Positions 3,512 through 9,571 of a stretch of 9,571 bases of DNA are shown here, one piece after another. The first letter of the stretch is position 1. Every line of letters begins with the position of its first letter. The translations under genes and the position numbers were made by a program. This stretch comes from a virus (taxonomy: Duplodnaviria > Heunggongvirae > Uroviricota > Caudoviricetes): positions 1 to 9,571 of the IMG/VR virus record IMGVR_UViG_2703718868_000012, one strand, 5' to 3'. The notes below the pieces were generated by a model. That model did no database searches. It saw only the letters and a list, made by a program, of their open reading frames with translations, and was not told the origin of the DNA.

Positions 3512-5266
3512 TTATAAAAACGCGTCGCAATCGTCTGTTGTTATTGCGTTAGTCTGCGTTACTCCTTTAACTTTCCGCGTAATATATTCATGTCCGTAAA
3601 CTTTCGCGGCTGGCTTCATAGCCTTGCCAAAGTCATTTACGTTTAGCGGTTTGCTCCTGCCTGCGTACGCCATAAACGCCAGATAGACGCGGTAAAGGCT
3701 GTTTCTGGTCGTGTACTTCACTGAATCGCCACCGCCGCCCATCATCAGGCCGCGTGCTTCCTCCAGAAAATTCAGGAACTGGCAAAACTCAATAACCGGA
3801 TCCGTCTGTTGCTTTATTGCCAGTGCTTCATCACCGTCACGCTGTTCCAGTAGTAAAGCCCGTGCCTTCTCAGGGTCGGTAAAGTTCGCCAGCAATCGGC
3901 GGATAATGACAGGGATTTCAGCCGCAATCTTTTCCGGTAGCTCCCTGTCTTTTTCGGCCTCACTGACGATATTGTCGAAACGGAAAATCACGCGACGACG
4001 TGCCACACCTCCGGCCCGTTCGGTGAATATCATCGGGTTATTGTTGGTCGCCAGCACCACCGCCCTGATTACAGCCGTGAAACGCTTTTCGTATTTCGGG
4101 TTAATTTCCACGGGGTCACCGCCCGTGATTTTCTTGATGCCCGTTCCTTCGCCTGTATATTTCGGCTGGTCAGCCAGGACGATAAGGCGACTCCCGACAA
4201 CCTGCGCACGTCCACCAGCATCATCAAGCGATGTCATTTCAGCGCTTACCGTGTTCTGTTTCCCTGCCAGAAGGCTGGCTATGTGTGTGAATGTACTTTT
4301 ACCGCTCCCGCCGTCTCCGGTGGCCTCAATAAACATCTGCCAGTCGTACCGGTTCGCCATAATCATGTACAGCGCGGCACATATCCGCATCATCTTGCGC
4401 GGGTCTTTTCCGGCTGCGTGCTCAAGCCATTTATGAAAGTTTGGCGCGTTATCGCGGATGTTCTCCCCTGGTGCTGGTGGCGTGTACTCAATACTGTTGT
4501 GCGTGGTGATCCAGTTCTCCGGCGTGTGCGGGGAAAATTCCCCCGTTTTCAGGTCAAGCGCACCATTGGCAAACGGCAGCAAATCGCCGGACGGCTCGCC
4601 CATTGGTTCGGCAATAACTTTTAACGCTTCCACGGCGTTATTGATTACGCGCTTGCTGAAAGTGGCCCTGTGCTCTGAATAGATCGCCACCATTTCGCGG
4701 CTAAGTTCCATTGTGCTGACCGGACACCATACCCCGCCGCGCCATACGTGAACGATTTCACTTTCAGGATGCACGCAAACGCCATCAAATCGTCCGGCAA
4801 GAAGTTGAGCGCGCTCACTGTCCGCCATCTGCGAAAGTTGCGCCTTTTGCTTTACAGGAAGCTCAATAACCAGCCCATCAGAAAGATTCTGGCGCTCACT
4901 GGCCAGATATTCGCGCCAGTTCTCCACCTTCTGACCGTGCATACCATCAGGGTAAAAATTTGCATCCTGTACGCCTGCCGCCGCCAGCTTCTGACCAATC
5001 GCCTTTATCATTACTGGCGCAAGATATCCGGCCCTGAATATGCGCACGGATTTTCTGCCTTCCGGCACAATTTGCAGCTTATCCAGTTCTGATAACTGCT
5101 GCTCCCCAAGCCACACAGGAGGCTCATTATCTCCGGCCATACGCGCGTCATGTTCCTGCCATTGTTTCGCGTGTGACCAGGCATCACTACCCGCAAAAAT
5201 AATGACTTCTGTTTCTTTGTGTTTTATGCCGCGTGGCTGCTGTTTTACGTTCGGTGCCAGTTTCAT
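3512..5266 (-). CDS. Phage/plasmid primase, P4 family (primase-helicase, D5-like NTPase)
   Basis: 584 aa. Walker A GDGGSGKST seen directly; a Walker B-like hydrophobic stretch ...LIVLAD... follows. Overall resemblance to the P4-alpha C-terminal / D5-type replicative primase-helicases of satellites. ATG at 5266 overlaps the upstream stop as ATGA; SD AGGGG ~8 nt upstream. Confidence 0.85.
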   Translation of the reverse strand: MKLAPNVKQQPRGIKHKETEVIIFAGSDAWSHAKQWQEHDARMAGDNEPPVWLGEQQLSELDKLQIVPEGRKSVRIFRAGYLAPVMIKAIGQKLAAAGVQDANFYPDGMHGQKVENWREYLASERQNLSDGLVIELPVKQKAQLSQMADSERAQLLAGRFDGVCVHPESEIVHVWRGGVWCPVSTMELSREMVAIYSEHRATFSKRVINNAVEALKVIAEPMGEPSGDLLPFANGALDLKTGEFSPHTPENWITTHNSIEYTPPAPGENIRDNAPNFHKWLEHAAGKDPRKMMRICAALYMIMANRYDWQMFIEATGDGGSGKSTFTHIASLLAGKQNTVSAEMTSLDDAGGRAQVVGSRLIVLADQPKYTGEGTGIKKITGGDPVEINPKYEKRFTAVIRAVVLATNNNPMIFTERAGGVARRRVIFRFDNIVSEAEKDRELPEKIAAEIPVIIRRLLANFTDPEKARALLLEQRDGDEALAIKQQTDPVIEFCQFLNFLEEARGLMMGGGGDSVKYTTRNSLYRVYLAFMAYAGRSKPLNVNDFGKAMKPAAKVYGHEYITRKVKGVTQTNAITTDDCDAFL

Positions 5267-5562
5267 TTTTTGCCCCTGAATCCGTTAATCATGTTTTTCA
5301 TCTTCTGAATATTGGCGCGTGCTTTCTCCCTGCTGGTGGGCACGTTACGCGGTACGGCCTGCACAAGAGAAAAATCACGCCGGAACTGATAAACAGGCAT
5401 CACGCAATCATATTCGTAACCTTCACGGCGGTAAGTTACGCACCGTCCCGCCACGCCCTTAATCATTACCGTGCCGCCGTACTGGTCGCGGTAAATATCA
5501 CCGCGCGTAAATTTAGGGTGAGTGTTGCCACTGGCAGTTAAGCCAGAATATTTAAATTTCAT
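5263..5562 (-). CDS. Hypothetical 99-aa protein, translationally coupled to the primase
   Basis: ATG at 5562, 5 nt after the upstream TAA; stop overlaps the primase ATG. Basic protein, no motif recognised. Confidence 0.5.
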   Translation of the reverse strand: MKFKYSGLTASGNTHPKFTRGDIYRDQYGGTVMIKGVAGRCVTYRREGYEYDCVMPVYQFRRDFSLVQAVPRNVPTSREKARANIQKMKNMINGFRGKK

Positions 5563-5567
5563 TATTT

Positions 5568-5801
5568 TTATTCTCCGGTGTGCTGTTCGTTATATCTGTC
5601 GTGCAATTGGTCTATTTCTTGCAGTTCCATTATTACAGGCTCAAGAAGCGTTATTAATGCCGTGGCAATTCTTGATTTTTGTTTGTCGCGTTCATTGTCG
5701 CCAAGTGTTTCAAGCCATATGCGCAATATTTCCAGCATGTTTTCACTGTGAGAAAGTGCAAGAAATGCGCGGTATATTGTTTCAAGATAAATATCACGCA
5801 T
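5568..5801 (-). CDS. Hypothetical 77-aa protein
   Basis: ATG at 5801 with a G-rich SD-like stretch (GGGGA) ~6 nt upstream; start sits 1 nt after the upstream stop (TAATATG). Predicted helical, acidic. Confidence 0.5.
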   Translation of the reverse strand: MRDIYLETIYRAFLALSHSENMLEILRIWLETLGDNERDKQKSRIATALITLLEPVIMELQEIDQLHDRYNEQHTGE

Positions 5802-6024: not shown

Positions 6025-6238
6025 AACCCCCCCCATTTTCACAATCAGCAACAAGAATATTTTTAGCGTCATTCAGTGACCGCGTTGCGGTGTATCGGAT
6101 ACATTCCAGGGCGAATAGTGTGTATTCTTCCCGTCCTTCCTTTTGTGCAAGCTCTGCTGTGCATTCAATATCAATAAGCGCGTGCATCAGCGTAGTGAGT
6201 GCGGCAGCTGCTGCGTCCGGTGTGGTTTTATTGTGCAT
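6017..6238 (-). CDS. Hypothetical 73-aa protein
   Basis: ATG at 6238 preceded by AGGGGGA ~6 nt upstream. The track start at 6277 is a TTG without RBS support. The last codons (...ENGGGYA) run through the G8 tract. Confidence 0.45.
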   Translation of the reverse strand: MHNKTTPDAAAAALTTLMHALIDIECTAELAQKEGREEYTLFALECIRYTATRSLNDAKNILVADCENGGGYA

Positions 6239-6428
6239 AGGTTTCCCCCTGGCGAATACGGGCGGCGAATACCGCAATACAACCGGACGGGCAACGGCTA
6301 CGCGCTTCGCGTTCCGTCCAGGCGGTTACGTGGATGATTTGAGATTCTCCGGCACTCAGTGCCAGAAAACGCCACACAAAGGCCGTTTGTGTGTGTGCTA
6401 GTCGTGGGGTATGATTTACGGCAACCAT
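6228..6428 (-). CDS. Hypothetical 66-aa protein, first ORF of the small-ORF/primase operon
   Basis: ATG at 6428 with SD GAGAGGT ~6 nt upstream; ends 11 nt inside the next ORF in another frame. No motif recognised. Confidence 0.4.
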   Translation of the reverse strand: MVAVNHTPRLAHTQTAFVWRFLALSAGESQIIHVTAWTEREARSRCPSGCIAVFAARIRQGETYAQ

Positions 6429-6502
6429 AAATTTACCTCTCTATAGTGTTTGTGGTTAGACGCCCTGCATGTGTTCCAGCACTGTGGGGCGTTGTTTTTT
6501 GG

Positions 6503-6575
6503 TGCAAGTCACCTTGAAATCTAGGTTACTTTTAGGTGACTTGCACTTCAAGTCTTTTTTTATTTTTTTTTCTCC
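6503..6575. promoter_or_regulatory. Divergent control region: 12-bp perfect inverted repeat (operator-like) followed by a hairpin and long T-tract
   Basis: TGCAAGTCACCT (6503-6514) and AGGTGACTTGCA (6534-6545) are exact reverse complements, 19-bp spacer. Second hairpin GACTTG (6538-6543) / CAAGTC (6549-6554) is followed by T7-A-T9 (6555-6571). Lies between the divergent starts at 6428 (minus) and 6613 (plus). Confidence 0.45.
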
Positions 6576-6612
6576 GTATACTGAACACCACCTAACAGTA
6601 AGGAGAACAGAG

Positions 6613-6792
6613 ATGCCAACAGGTACAACCAACAACAAGTCACAACAAAAAACTGCTAGAGTACCTCTAGACGTTTTAAGCGAAATGAATTTGGTAAAAG
6701 AAGAAAACGAAACAGACGCACAATTTATCGTTACTGCCATGCGCGGCGAAATCAAACGCCGCCAGCGTCGCAAGGCCAAAGAATCAGAATAA
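6613..6792 (+). CDS. Small basic protein, possible ribbon-helix-helix DNA-binding regulator (59 aa)
   Basis: Canonical SD AAGGAG (6600-6605) 7 nt before the ATG at 6613. Sequence ...ARVPLDVLSEMNLVKEENETDAQFIVTAMRGEIKRRQRRK fits a beta-strand / helix / loop / helix RHH pattern with a basic tail. The first ~120 nt are markedly AT-rich. The longer track ORF from 6469 would translate the palindrome and T-tract. Confidence 0.55.
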   Translation: MPTGTTNNKSQQKTARVPLDVLSEMNLVKEENETDAQFIVTAMRGEIKRRQRRKAKESE

Positions 6793-6849
6793 TCACTATC
6801 AGCGCCGTGGTGTGAGGTACTACGGCGCATTGCTTTACAGGGCAGTATC

Positions 6850-7077
6850 ATGACCAACAACACACTATCACCAATACAAGACACGCAAACGCAAGATGAT
6901 GAAATCATCCGGCAAAGGCAGTCAGAAGCCTGCGCCAGACTTGAGGAAGAACTAACCAGAACAAAAATACCACCACCAGCGCCGCGCTTAGTGCCACCAG
7001 AAAAATTTGCCCTTGAAGATTTTGTCGATAAATACCCACGGCGGCTTAAATCCGGCAAAAACCGACCGCCAGGATGA
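6850..7077 (+). CDS. Hypothetical 75-aa protein (acidic, helical N-half, Pro-rich C-half)
   Basis: ATG at 6850 with a weak GGG SD ~7 nt upstream; reading frame looks protein-like. Preceded by hairpin GCGCCGT (6802-6808) / ACGGCGC (6822-6828). Confidence 0.4.
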   Translation: MTNNTLSPIQDTQTQDDEIIRQRQSEACARLEEELTRTKIPPPAPRLVPPEKFALEDFVDKYPRRLKSGKNRPPG

Positions 7078-7196
7078 GTGCACAAGACGGAACCATGAAA
7101 CGGATTATTCCGTTTCCGGGGCGTTTGTGTGTGTATAAAGAGTAAGCTATGCTCTTTTATAGCCATAATCGTTACCTCAATTAATGGTTTGGTTAG

Positions 7197-7238
7197 AAGC
7201 CCGTTGGTGTTCATAGCGCCAGCGGGCTTTGCTTTTTG
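7197..7238 (+). terminator. Rho-independent terminator ending the 6613-7077 transcription unit
   Basis: 11-bp stem AAGCCCGTTGG (7197-7207) / CCAGCGGGCTT (7219-7229) with one G-U pair, 11-nt loop, then a U-rich tail TTGCTTTTTGTG. Confidence 0.5.
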
Positions 7239-7248
7239 TGTTGATTGT

Positions 7249-7282
7249 ATGTAATGTGTCACCACGCATAAATACATTACAT
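7249..7282 (+). promoter_or_regulatory. 9-bp perfect inverted repeat, candidate operator just upstream of the Arc-like gene
   Basis: ATGTAATGT (7249-7257) and ACATTACAT (7274-7282) are exact reverse complements, 16-bp spacer. Preceded by a TTGATT -35-like hexamer (7241-7246); ends 15 nt before the GTG start. Confidence 0.35.
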
Positions 7283-7296
7283 GAGGTGTAATTAAC

Positions 7297-7476
7297 GTGT
7301 CAACACACAAAAACGAAAGGCGTGGTAATCCTCCGTTCCAGTTCCGTTTAGATCCTGACTTACGGGAAAAGATGGAAAAGGCACAACAACATGACGGCGA
7401 TGATTCTCTTGCTGCCTGGATAAAGCGAATAATCCGCAAAGAATTACAGCAACGCGGCATAGAACCCAAAGGGTAA
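7297..7476 (+). CDS. Arc-family ribbon-helix-helix DNA-binding protein (59 aa)
   Basis: GTG at 7297 with SD GAGGTG 8 nt upstream. PPFQFRLDPDLREKMEKAQQHDGDDSLAAWIKRIIRKEL matches the Arc repressor pattern (P22 Arc PQFNLRWPREVLDLVRKVAEENGRSVNSEIYQRV). Absent from the supplied track (GTG start, under 60 aa). Confidence 0.6.
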   Translation: MSTHKNERRGNPPFQFRLDPDLREKMEKAQQHDGDDSLAAWIKRIIRKELQQRGIEPKG

Positions 7477-7571
7477 TTACATTGCCCACCAGCCTGATAG
7501 CGGCTATCATTCCCGTGCTTATGTTTGGGATCACATACACATAAGGCGCAGCAGGTTAATTGTTCACAAGG

Positions 7572-7597
7572 GCGTTCCGGCAACGGGGCGCTTTTTG
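7572..7597 (+). terminator. Terminator-like hairpin plus T5 downstream of the Arc-like gene
   Basis: Stem GCGTTCC (7572-7578) / GGGGCGC (7585-7591) including G-U pairs, loop GGCAAC, then TTTTT. No U-tract on the opposite strand. Confidence 0.35.
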
Positions 7598-7626
7598 TTA
7601 TGTTCATCGTGTCAAGCCTCACACCA

Positions 7627-7833
7627 TTACGCAGCCGTTCCGCGTGCTTCCTGCTCACGTTCTTTCATCCATGCGATTACGTCTTCCTCATACCATCCGC
7701 GACGGCGTAAACCAACGCGAAAACCCTGCGGAAATTCTCCGGCGTTGATCATGCTTTGAAGCGTGCTGTCTGCCTTGATGTGGATAAGTTTTTTTACTTC
7801 CTGGCGAAAGATGACTTTTTTGATTGCTTCCAT
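7627..7833 (-). CDS. alpA: AlpA-family transcriptional regulator / excisionase-like protein (68 aa)
   Basis: ...IKADSTLQSMINAGEFPQGFRVGLRRRGWYEEDVIAWMKE matches the AlpA pattern (helix-turn-helix, then G.FP...LG.R...W...V..W). Sits near the integrase as in P4-like and PICI elements. Confidence 0.8.
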   Translation of the reverse strand: MEAIKKVIFRQEVKKLIHIKADSTLQSMINAGEFPQGFRVGLRRRGWYEEDVIAWMKEREQEARGTAA

Positions 7834-7965
7834 CGTGATTTACCTTGTGAATCCGGTGTATTCCGGTGACAAATACGGTAAATCATCGGATACGGGTAAA
7901 AACAGTTCCCACCGTTTTTAAACTGTTAGAACCGTTTTTTATGTTGGTGATTTGAAAGGGATTTA

Positions 7966-8000: not shown

Positions 8001-8252
8001 TTACCGCCATTTTTTTGGCCTGCCTCCGGTCTTCATGGTTGCCGGACGAACTACCCTGTCGATACTTTCAGCCATATTCCTGGATGCCCCACGGGATACC
8101 AGGAAATCTACTACCTGTTTTTTTGATGGGGCCGTCGTTCTGTCCTCCGGATCGTAGGTTGACCAAAATTCATGCTGAACCATCAGGGCCAGTTGCAGCC
8201 CGTCGCAATTGCATCTGAAATTTTTTTGCATCTTAACGGTTTCATGTTTCAC
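8001..8252 (-). CDS. Hypothetical 83-aa protein between integrase and alpA
   Basis: Open frame with GTG at 8252 (weak AAGG SD) or internal ATG at 8231; basic C-terminus ...KTGGRPKKWR; own terminator. Start uncertain. Confidence 0.4.
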   Translation of the reverse strand: MKHETVKMQKNFRCNCDGLQLALMVQHEFWSTYDPEDRTTAPSKKQVVDFLVSRGASRNMAESIDRVVRPATMKTGGRPKKWR

Positions 8253-8329
8253 GGCCTTGTCGTTAAATTTGATGCAATTATACGACGGTTTTACATGGTT
8301 TTCGTAGTTTTTACTGGTTTTCTGTACAG

Positions 8330-9571
8330 CTAAACGGCTCGGATACCCCTTTTACCACTGGCGAGGGTTACGCCCGTCGCCGCAGCCTCGACAAATTCGC
8401 CCCACCAGCGCATAAGCACCACGCGTTTTTCTATGTAGTTGCTCCGGTTGTATGCCCGTCTCACTTCGTTAGTGTCGACGTGGGCAAGTGCGGCCTCGAT
8501 TACGTCCGGCTCGAATCCTTCCTCGTTCGCTGCTGTACTGAATATGGCGCGTAATCCATGAGACACCAGCACGCCAGCGAACCCCATGCGTCGTAATGCT
8601 GCGTTTGCTGTCTGGCTGTTCATTGGCTGCCGTGGGTCTTTCAGACTCGGGAAAACATAATCGCGGTGGCGGCTGATTGGTTTCATGGCCTCCAGCACCG
8701 CCATAGCCTGACCGGAAAGTGGGATAACGTGATCCCTGCGCATCTTCATGCGTCCGGCGGGTATCGTCCAGCGTTGCGCGTCCAGGTCGATTTCATCCCA
8801 CCGCGTTGATGACGCTTCGGCGGGACGGGTTACGGTCAGTAACTGCCATTCAATCAGTAATCTGGTCTGCCGTTCTGTTGCCGATACTGATAAAGCCTGC
8901 ATAAGCTCCGGCAACTGTTCGGGGCGGATTGTTGGCATATGTTTTTTTACAGGGGAGGGGAACGCCTTACGCACATTCATAGCCGGATTGGCATCAATCA
9001 GCCCACTGTTGGCGGCGTAATCCATTACCTCATTAACGCGCTGTAAAACCCGTTTGAGTGTTTCCAGGTTGCCGCGCTCCTTGATGGGGGTAAGCACCTC
9101 AACGAACCTGCGAGCGGTCAGGGTGTCTATTGGGGTGTTGCCGATGAACGGGAATACATATTTATCCAGCGATCGCCAGATGTCTTTAATCGTGTTGGGG
9201 GCCAGATTCTGGCTGATTTTCACCTGGTACCATGCCGCCGCCACATTTTCGAACGTGTTCCCTTGTCTTCGGGCCTCTGCCTCTCGTTTTTTCTTCTCAT
9301 GGCCCTGCGGGTCAGTTCCGGCACTGATTAACGCTCTGTACTCGCTACGGCGTTTTCTGGCATCAGCCAGGGAAACATCATCAAGCGATCCAAAACTCAG
9401 CAATATTCTTTTTTTGTCCGATGGCCGGTAGTAGGAAAATCGCCAGAGTTTTGATCCGGACGGTTTGACCAGGAGAAAAAGCCCTCCGCCGTCCTGTAGG
9501 GTGTATTCCTTTTCCGCTGGTCTGGCTGCTTTGATCTGCACCGTGGTTAATGGGGGTGTTTTTCTCGCCAT
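8330..9571 (-). CDS. int: Site-specific tyrosine integrase, P4 / CP4-57 type
   Basis: 413 aa. N-terminus MARKTPPLTTVQIKAARPAEKEYTLQDGGGLFLLVKPSGSKLWRFSYY is typical of P4-family integrase arm-binding domains. C-terminal catalytic region carries HGLR... and ...RAYNRSNY (candidate His/Arg/Tyr residues). ATG is at the very last bases of the window, so upstream signals are unseen. Confidence 0.9.
   Translation of the reverse strand: MARKTPPLTTVQIKAARPAEKEYTLQDGGGLFLLVKPSGSKLWRFSYYRPSDKKRILLSFGSLDDVSLADARKRRSEYRALISAGTDPQGHEKKKREAEARRQGNTFENVAAAWYQVKISQNLAPNTIKDIWRSLDKYVFPFIGNTPIDTLTARRFVEVLTPIKERGNLETLKRVLQRVNEVMDYAANSGLIDANPAMNVRKAFPSPVKKHMPTIRPEQLPELMQALSVSATERQTRLLIEWQLLTVTRPAEASSTRWDEIDLDAQRWTIPAGRMKMRRDHVIPLSGQAMAVLEAMKPISRHRDYVFPSLKDPRQPMNSQTANAALRRMGFAGVLVSHGLRAIFSTAANEEGFEPDVIEAALAHVDTNEVRRAYNRSNYIEKRVVLMRWWGEFVEAAATGVTLASGKRGIRAV

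Follow-up and report, generated by a model that had tools for sequence, protein, structure and literature searches.

Two genes start back to back at positions 6428 (minus strand) and 6613 (plus strand) of the window, the whole 9,571-nucleotide stretch of viral DNA analysed here, and leave a control gap of 184 bp between them. The gap contains a palindrome and a hairpin followed by a T-rich run. The initial annotation read the palindrome as the operator of a dimeric repressor and the hairpin as the terminator of a short, P4-like immunity RNA. Which of these elements is likely to control the two divergent gene sets, and does it act as DNA or as RNA?

The window is 99% identical to a locus in E. 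coli strain OkiPb01677 and represents part of an integrated phage satellite. E. coli 2012EL-2448 carries the island too, the matches to these two strains being 97–100% identical. The genes that define the setting are the following.

8330–9571, minus strand: tyrosine integrase gene.
7627–7833, minus strand: AlpA-like gene.
6613 to about 7700, plus strand: block of small genes.
6228–6428, minus strand: icd-like gene, the first gene of the leftward replication operon (NF033153 phage_ICD_like, 63.4 bits).
3512–5266, minus strand: D5-type primase-helicase gene of the leftward operon.

From 6428 leftward, the minus-strand operon encodes the Icd-like protein, small ORFs, DUF4222, the D5-type primase-helicase, an SSB and a fusion of ClpP protease and capsid protein, as called from the annotation of the 99%-identical locus and the Pfam matches of the downstream genes. 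In the annotation of the near-identical locus L001 the operon genes overlap by 4–11 nt. This gene set fits the capsid-forming type of PICI. BLASTN of 6400–6630 against phage genomes returned zero matches, and a Pfam search with the small proteins was uninformative. The int-alpA RNA motif (RF02996) is absent from the window; it was found in two related loci (L172 6497–6566 and L017 2505–2576). The interval from the AlpA-like gene to the integrase gene contains tandem direct repeats at 7900–7939 and 8288–8322 (AAACAGTTCCCACCGTTTTT/AAACTGTTAGAACCGTTTTT and GTTTTACATGGTTTTC/GTTTTTACTGGTTTTC), and these may be binding sites of AlpA or Int.

The palindrome is composed of GTGCAAGTCACCT at 6502–6514 and AGGTGACTTGCAC at 6534–6546, which are 100% complementary over 13 bp and separated by a 19-nt spacer. 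The 12-bp inverted repeat described before (6503–6514/6534–6545) is thus real and one base longer. When 6429–6612 was shuffled 3000 times with dinucleotides preserved and spacers of 3–60 allowed, the longest perfect inverted repeat was 11 bp, and 13 bp was never reached (0/3000).

Related modules were collected from three sources, namely E. coli genomes found by BLAST, a DNA pattern searched in viral contigs (about 100 true members with 89 distinct downstream regions), and a covariance model run on genome contigs. The pattern scan of genome contigs gave mostly chance matches, 13 of 80 loci being confirmed by the model R1. In total, about 90 related modules were compared. The order is invariant in all modules: a conserved RNA-like element is followed by two to three copies of a short site and then by a small gene. 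The neighbouring small genes fall into two related groups, the YlcI/YnfO type, as the gene at 6613, and the Arc-like type, as the gene at 7297. Modules with the YlcI type are called type B (n = 24) and modules with the Arc type are called type A (n = 23).

The offsets of the short sites are fixed across the modules, and the site sequence is specific to each module. The sites are GTGCAAGTCAC and its inverse in the window, GGTGTATTTCACC and its inverse in copy 2 of L004, the direct repeats GTGCATCGCAC, GTGAATCGCAC and CTGAATCGCAC in L003, two direct copies of GGTGTCAGCCAC with CTGTCAGCCAC after the −10 box in copy 1 of L004, and three copies of GTGCTAACCACCT in direct orientation in L044. Direct-repeat sites that allow no pairing between arms were found in L004 copy 1, L044, L071 and L110. 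Because the orientation of the sites varies, direct in some modules and inverted in others, they behave as DNA sites and not as an RNA hairpin. Conservation of the palindrome in related islands had been named beforehand as a test of its function. Consistently, L249, L250 and L016 retain both arms despite diverged DNA between them, and the −10 box there still reads TAnnnT.

The arms and the elements around them are as follows.

6502–6514: O1, the left arm (core GTG-N5-CAC), at about +2 to +14 of the candidate leftward promoter P_L.
6534–6546: O2, the right arm, filling the P_L spacer between the −35 and −10 boxes.
6581–6593: O3, a possible third operator, degenerate (CTGAACACCACCT), at the start of the P_R transcript.
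6523–6551, minus strand: candidate P_L, with −35 TTGAAG (6551 to 6546), a 17-bp spacer, −10 TAACCT (6528 to 6523) and a start near 6516.
6577–6582, plus strand: TATACT, the candidate −10 box of the rightward promoter P_R for the RHH gene.
6613–6792, plus strand: YlcI/YnfO-family gene, candidate RHH repressor of O1 and O2.

At the position of O3, other type-B modules carry an exact repeat of the O2 core; in the window O3 agrees with O1/O2 at 7 of 11 positions by hand count, and likewise in L016, L249 and L250.

The sites follow the small gene next to them. Their core is constant for each signature of the RHH N-terminal β-strand, while the replication-protein cluster varies: AGGTGGTCAC pairs with the signature SPQFRMRIS and three replication-protein clusters, and the window palindrome pairs with the signature QKTAR[VI]PL in two different ones. 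L004 and L006 share a nearly identical RNA element, behind which the operator and the RHH gene were swapped together. Site cores that track the RHH strand, arms that are kept and the exchange as a unit together argue for an operator with its cognate repressor and against iterons bound by a primase. In that second view, the repeats would belong to a replication origin, as type I repeats do in P4 ori and crr, and the primase-helicase would bind them. The P4 annotation does have short repeats in both orientations near a divergent promoter region, and GGTGAACA, which we take to be the complement of the P4 repeat, occurs inside the sites of some relatives. However, the site type tracks the RHH protein, and the same operator is found with two to four different replication-protein clusters. 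The window itself has two modules with different sites and one primase, and the sites stand at fixed positions inside promoters. The origin reading was therefore rejected, since the site core follows the RHH strand signature and not the replication-protein cluster, and we give it hardly any weight.

The repeated sites overlap a core promoter in a conserved layout, and their sequence co-varies with the recognition strand across loci with different replication proteins, as would be expected for RHH operators. The two arms of the palindrome are thus most likely an operator pair for the RHH product of 6613–6792, acting on P_L. Comparison in this way supports the earlier operator proposal: each module has repeats of its own, which change together with the RHH protein and lie over a leftward promoter that is conserved. 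It had named the products of both 6613 and 7297 as candidate repressors; the 6613 product is the likely binder, while the 7297 product probably is not, as it appears to have different sites of its own at 7249–7282.

The RHH assignment was evaluated at the protein level. With 53 homologues as input, AlphaFold modelled the 6613 product at a pLDDT of 86, as an extended N-terminus followed by two helices. By this model the fold is ribbon-helix-helix, so that the gene adjacent to the sites is predicted to encode an RHH protein. The YlcI/YnfO and Arc-like groups were aligned to each other profile to profile with a probability of 93.7%. For the Arc-like group profile, the best solved relatives are the Arc repressor, NikR and HP0222, with Arc as the top PDB match (E 0.027), and the 7297 product matches the Arc-like repressor phrog_228 with E 3.4e-6. 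When the YlcI-type alignment was searched as a profile against the PDB, no RHH protein was matched. Directly 3′ of the YlcI-type gene, a 12-bp G+C-rich hairpin is located at 6802–6828; it was listed as terminator-like, with a weak T-run.

P_L of the window has 7 of the 12 consensus bases. A simple promoter scan of 6100–7000 called no promoter, neither P_L nor the promoter of the small RNA described below, and all three promoters proposed here (P_L, P_R and that of the small RNA) rest on positional conservation across relatives. TTGNNN followed by exactly 17 bp and TAnnnT was located by script in 18 of the 24 type-B modules. In type-A modules the −35 box reads TTGACA in 23/23 and overlaps the repressor gene start, ATG-TCA-AC; TAnnnT is found in 22/23. 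In the window and the other located type-B modules, 18 in all, an A-rich tract immediately precedes the P_L −35 box. The operon of the icd-like and primase genes would be transcribed from P_L. On the other side, the TAnnnT box of P_R is present in all 24 type-B modules, 30 ± 2 nt before the repressor ATG and with the third site directly after it; no −35 box of P_R is recognisable.

The second hairpin and the T-rich run of the initial annotation overlap these promoters.

6538–6554, plus strand: hairpin B (GACTTG/CAAGTC), formed by pairing of O2 with the −35 box sequence.
6555–6571: T/A tract upstream of the P_L −35 box, in the position of an UP element, and also in the spacer region of P_R.

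Both elements are present as described, a hairpin of six pairs (three of them G-C) with a loop of 5 (GACTTGCACTTCAAGTC) and then a 17-nt T-rich run (TTTTTTTATTTTTTTTT). On this basis the hairpin and its U-tract could be the intrinsic terminator of a P4-like immunity RNA that starts at 6440–6500 on the plus strand. The sequence of the window, the hairpin followed by TTTTTTTATT, does pass a simple terminator rule for stem and U-tract, and a 13-bp hairpin would form in plus-strand RNA with an MFE of −23.4 kcal/mol (z −5.9). However, this MFE fold contains the 13-bp hairpin instead of the 6-bp one, and the 13-bp hairpin ends 8 nt before the T-run. The terminator-like shape was seen in only 2 of the 24 type-B modules, the window and one other, and is missing in L016, which has the same operator. 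The models of C4, c4-a1b1 and isrK, which detect P4, do not detect the window. Hairpin B seems to be a by-product of chance complementarity between ACTTG in the operator and CAAGT in the −35 box. In type-B modules the T-rich tract is kept as a fixed stretch of about 24 nt that runs from the P_L −35 box (TCAAG side) to the TATACT box, and we therefore take it to be the A/T tract of back-to-back promoters and not the U-tract of a terminator. The tract at 6555–6571 is at the position of a possible P_L UP element. The terminator claim thus holds as far as the simple rule goes and fails as a conserved terminator, and we regard the reading built on it as very unlikely.

The palindrome could also act in RNA. 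According to this explanation, the large hairpin and the small hairpin with its U-tract would be alternative structures in transcripts that read through from the promoter of the small RNA, and would attenuate the gene at 6613. GACTTG is common to both hairpins, so that the two structures are mutually exclusive, and type-A relatives have no obvious separate promoter for the RHH gene, which makes read-through plausible. Against this, the direct repeats in L004 copy 1, L044, L071 and L110 are unable to pair, no compensatory pattern was seen beyond that of identical sites, and the small hairpin is not conserved. The chance that the palindrome works by attenuation is small in our judgement, and the DNA operator is the reading that we follow.

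The other half of the gap contains a second terminator-like hairpin with a T-run, at 6459–6500 on the plus strand, which the initial annotation did not include. It is part of the following candidate transcription unit.

6387–6415, plus strand: candidate sRNA promoter, with −35 TTGTGT (6387–6392), a 17-bp spacer and −10 TATGAT (6410–6415).
6423–6500, plus strand: candidate cis-antisense sRNA of about 78 nt, with hairpin 1 at 6423–6457, a terminator hairpin at 6459–6493 and a U tail at 6494–6500.

The promoter is located within codons 5–14 of the icd-like gene, and the predicted start near 6423 is 3 nt inside its ORF. The promoter of the window is a weak match to the consensus (8 of 12 positions). 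In 66 of 69 distinct relatives, a TAnnnT box is found at a fixed distance from CAT, which is 10 nt, or 4 nt with an extended TG. Hairpin 1 holds CAU at 6426–6428, complementary to the start codon, and CCUC at 6436–6439, complementary to the Shine-Dalgarno sequence; the sRNA covers both the Shine-Dalgarno GAGAGG (6441 to 6436) and the ATG (6428 to 6426) of the icd-like gene.

The plus strand of the element folds with an MFE of −30.3 kcal/mol (z −5.7), versus −19.6 for the opposite strand. In a MAFFT alignment of 52 distinct relatives, which were recruited by a pattern fixing 16 bases (TGGTTAGA, GCCC and GGGC) so that those alignment columns are uninformative, 92.3% of the cells were paired, compared with 34–45% in slid controls. 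Cells with double changes numbered 104, versus 14–28 in the slid controls, and these covariation values were equalled in 0 of 500 shuffles. The model R1 scores the sRNA of the window at 74.7 bits, and its matches in nine E. coli loci derived from BLAST are all on the same strand, one per module. A covarying fold, a promoter, a terminator and full complementarity to the translation start of the target, all predicted from the sequence, together characterise a cis-antisense sRNA.

Alternatively, the two hairpins could be a structured minus-strand leader of the icd-like mRNA, with no separate sRNA. The element is indeed within the predicted P_L leader, and its complement also forms hairpins (the −19.6 kcal/mol above). 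However, all 52 relatives fold more stably on the plus strand, with a mean difference of 10.8 kcal/mol, and 250 of the 1408 pairs in relatives (18%) are G-U, which become A-C mismatches on the opposite strand. The T-run is 3′ of the hairpin on the plus strand only, the plus-strand −10 box is at a fixed distance, and the second copy of the element in the window, described below, is retained without an intact icd gene. We consider a leader without an sRNA to be improbable. A short plus-strand RNA at 6423–6500 is thus very probably made, as far as can be predicted. The initial annotation had considered such an RNA possible in this region, but its start at 6440–6500 and its end near 6572 are not supported, as the RNA is predicted to use another terminator.

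No part of the gap is conserved more widely than the sRNA region (6404–6501), which 976 of 5426 complete E. coli genomes contain, versus 62 for the operator part. The sRNA family also occurs in other Gammaproteobacteria, in a Bdellovibrionales MAG and in Rhizobium. The gene opposite the element is nearly always Icd-like. In five loci (L042, L073, L092, L109 and L059) the antisense element instead covers a gene for a protein of 150–200 aa with an HNH-like DHIDxxxxNN motif. Since some distant relatives have targets that are not Icd-like, the RNA module seems portable between first genes. In the Bdellovibrionales MAG (L175), a match to the type II hammerhead ribozyme, just above the gathering score, was found at 5557–5628 on the plus strand, adjoining a member of the sRNA family at 5634–5719 on the minus strand.

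Rfam gave no matches at the gathering threshold over the whole window, and no Rfam 15 family was found over the sRNA element in the window or in 12 relatives. A search of open-access text found no description of the sRNA, of YlcI/YnfO function or of cf-PICI repressors. PMC10111431 concerns the icd gene of isocitrate dehydrogenase and was set aside as irrelevant. The sRNA is new here in the sense that it is absent from Rfam, and it may still be known elsewhere, the literature search having covered open-access text.

The window contains a complete second module at 7125–7476, with its own RNA, sites and RHH gene.

7125–7238, plus strand: second copy of the sRNA gene, with −35 TTGTGT (7125–7130), −10 TATGCT (7148–7153) and an RNA at about 7161–7238.
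7249–7303: second control region, with the inverted repeat ATGTAATGT (7249–7257) and ACATTACAT (7274–7282).
7303–7274, minus strand: candidate second leftward promoter, with −35 TTGACA (7303 to 7298) overlapping the start of the Arc-like gene and −10 TAATGT (7279 to 7274).
7297–7476, plus strand: Arc-like RHH gene of the second module.

R1 matches the second sRNA copy at 7154–7237 with 76.3 bits, and its MFE is −35.1 kcal/mol (z −5.9). This copy is antisense to a mere remnant of an icd-like gene. From the ATG of that remnant, an open frame of 236 codons runs on the minus strand over 6456–7168 (listed as the ORF 6456–7658), antisense through two plus-strand genes and the entire control region. 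Its stop codon, the TAA contained in the conserved TCTAACCA, precedes the ATG of the icd-like gene by 28 nt. The frame is also open in L004 and L006, although its first ~330 nt are only about 55–65% identical to the window there, and the other two frames over 6456–7168 contain 10–19 stops. Its product gave no family match. The frame may serve transcripts of the second leftward promoter as a translated bridge, or it may be a shadow ORF.

Taken together, the 184-bp gap is probably a two-layer regulatory switch of a capsid-forming E. coli satellite, in which an RHH repressor acts on operators and an antisense RNA acts on the first gene of the operon; we assign this reading a probability of roughly 65%. 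The analysis shows the features of the sequence, how they are conserved and covary, and the modelled protein fold, whereas transcription, binding and the direction of regulation are inferred. In the silent state, RHH protein made from P_R would occupy O1 and O2 and block P_L. With O2 in the P_L spacer and O1 just after the start, the bound repressor should shut off the icd-like/primase/capsid operon. The antisense RNA would pair with the leader of those P_L transcripts that escape and would block ribosome binding at the icd-like gene. Because the operon genes overlap by a few nucleotides, the lost translation of the first gene should also lower expression of the downstream genes, as in c4-icd-ant of P1. 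Upon induction, P_L would fire towards the sRNA promoter, about 94 bp away, and this may reduce sRNA synthesis.

The silencing and induction of capsid-forming PICIs and related satellites are not described in the open-access literature that was searched. One cf-PICI paper describes the region downstream of alpA as variable and of unknown function, and the word "repressor" does not occur in it. The present analysis offers a circuit for cf-PICIs, consisting of type-specific RHH operators on the promoter of the replication operon and an antisense RNA over its first gene. About 18% of complete E. coli genomes, and other Proteobacteria as well, carry the sRNA, which is unannotated. That operator and repressor are exchanged like a cassette suggests that satellites fall into immunity types, and this would bear on exclusion between satellites and helpers and between different satellites.

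A wider reading, which we advance tentatively and think rather unlikely to hold in full, would join these elements. The SymR-like RNA, the type-specific operator and the RHH repressor would be the parts of an immunity cassette that capsid-forming and P4-like satellites can exchange and that has so far gone undescribed. The facing P_L and sRNA promoters would make it a bistable switch through transcriptional interference, SymR of K-12 and the symE leader would descend from the satellite RNA family, and translation of the 236-codon frame, bridging module 2 and the icd-like gene, would shield transcripts initiated upstream from Rho.

Among known systems, P1/P7 immI and P4 immunity resemble the window in that an RNA regulator heads an operon with an Icd-like first ORF. 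In P1, C4 blocks translation of icd and thereby lowers downstream expression. P4 provides a positional parallel, with a C4-family RNA (8507 to 8420) just upstream of an Icd-like ORF (8365 to 8168). This ORF of P4 (L002, 8168–8365, minus strand) is unannotated, encodes 65 aa and matches NF033153 with 76.1 bits; GenBank annotates a different frame as the cI protein. BLASTP of the Icd-like protein of the window against P4 ORFs returned nothing, and the shared family was seen only through NCBIfam. The C4 and CI RNAs share the strand of their targets; they are released from the operon transcript by processing and base-pair with target sites that occur as repeats. In contrast, the RNA of the window is on the opposite strand, with its own candidate promoter and terminator. 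The C4, c4-a1b1 and isrK models found nothing in the window, whether at the gathering threshold or with E values of up to 10 allowed, while the positive control P4 was detected by C4 (74.9 bits), c4-a1b1 (44.1 bits) and also isrK; R1 in turn had no significant match in P4. The P4-like RNA immunity suggested by the initial annotation finds no support in these searches. P4-type immunity was rejected for the window, its P4 counterpart at 8150–8800 being dissimilar by eye and R1 being without a significant P4 match.

The design of the RNA is closest to SymR/SymE, a type I toxin-antitoxin system of E. coli K-12 (RF01809). Like the candidate sRNA here, SymR is a cis-antisense RNA of about 77 nt with its promoter inside the first codons of its target, and it blocks translation (PMC4147584). 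The Rfam SymR model matches the window at 6423–6496 with 25.9 bits (E 0.015), far below its gathering score of 61, and R1, which was built without symR, matches the annotated symR of K-12 with 27.8 bits (E 5e-4) in the same register. The layout is shared, with model position 1 aligned at 6423 and the −10 box of the predicted promoter at 6410–6415. The Rfam SymR model did not match the second sRNA copy or five other relatives. Because the two-way matches are weak and these members are missed, the sRNA has a SymR-like design and is not a member of the family; it is possibly a distant relative of SymR, and the sRNA family may explain the origin of SymR. The target also differs, being SymE for SymR and an Icd-like protein of NF033153 in the window. 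SymR belongs to an isolated SOS-controlled gene, whereas the RNA of the window belongs to a satellite replication operon with RHH operators, and no LexA box was seen when one was sought by eye in 6429–6612 by analogy with symE.

Compared with the operators of Omega, CopG, Arc and AmrZ, the candidate sites of the window family differ in their GTG-N5-CAC cores of 11–13 bp, in the spacing of 22–34 bp and in being exchanged as cassettes together with the repressor gene. In P22 immI, the RHH repressors Mnt and Arc act at operators over divergent promoters, and the sar antisense RNA acts against a downstream ribosome-binding site. P22 immI is the closest match to the window in overall logic. The gene order differs, and the target is ant in P22 and the icd-like gene with the replication genes in the window. 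The switch as a whole is closest to P22 immI in its logic and to SymR in the design of its RNA.
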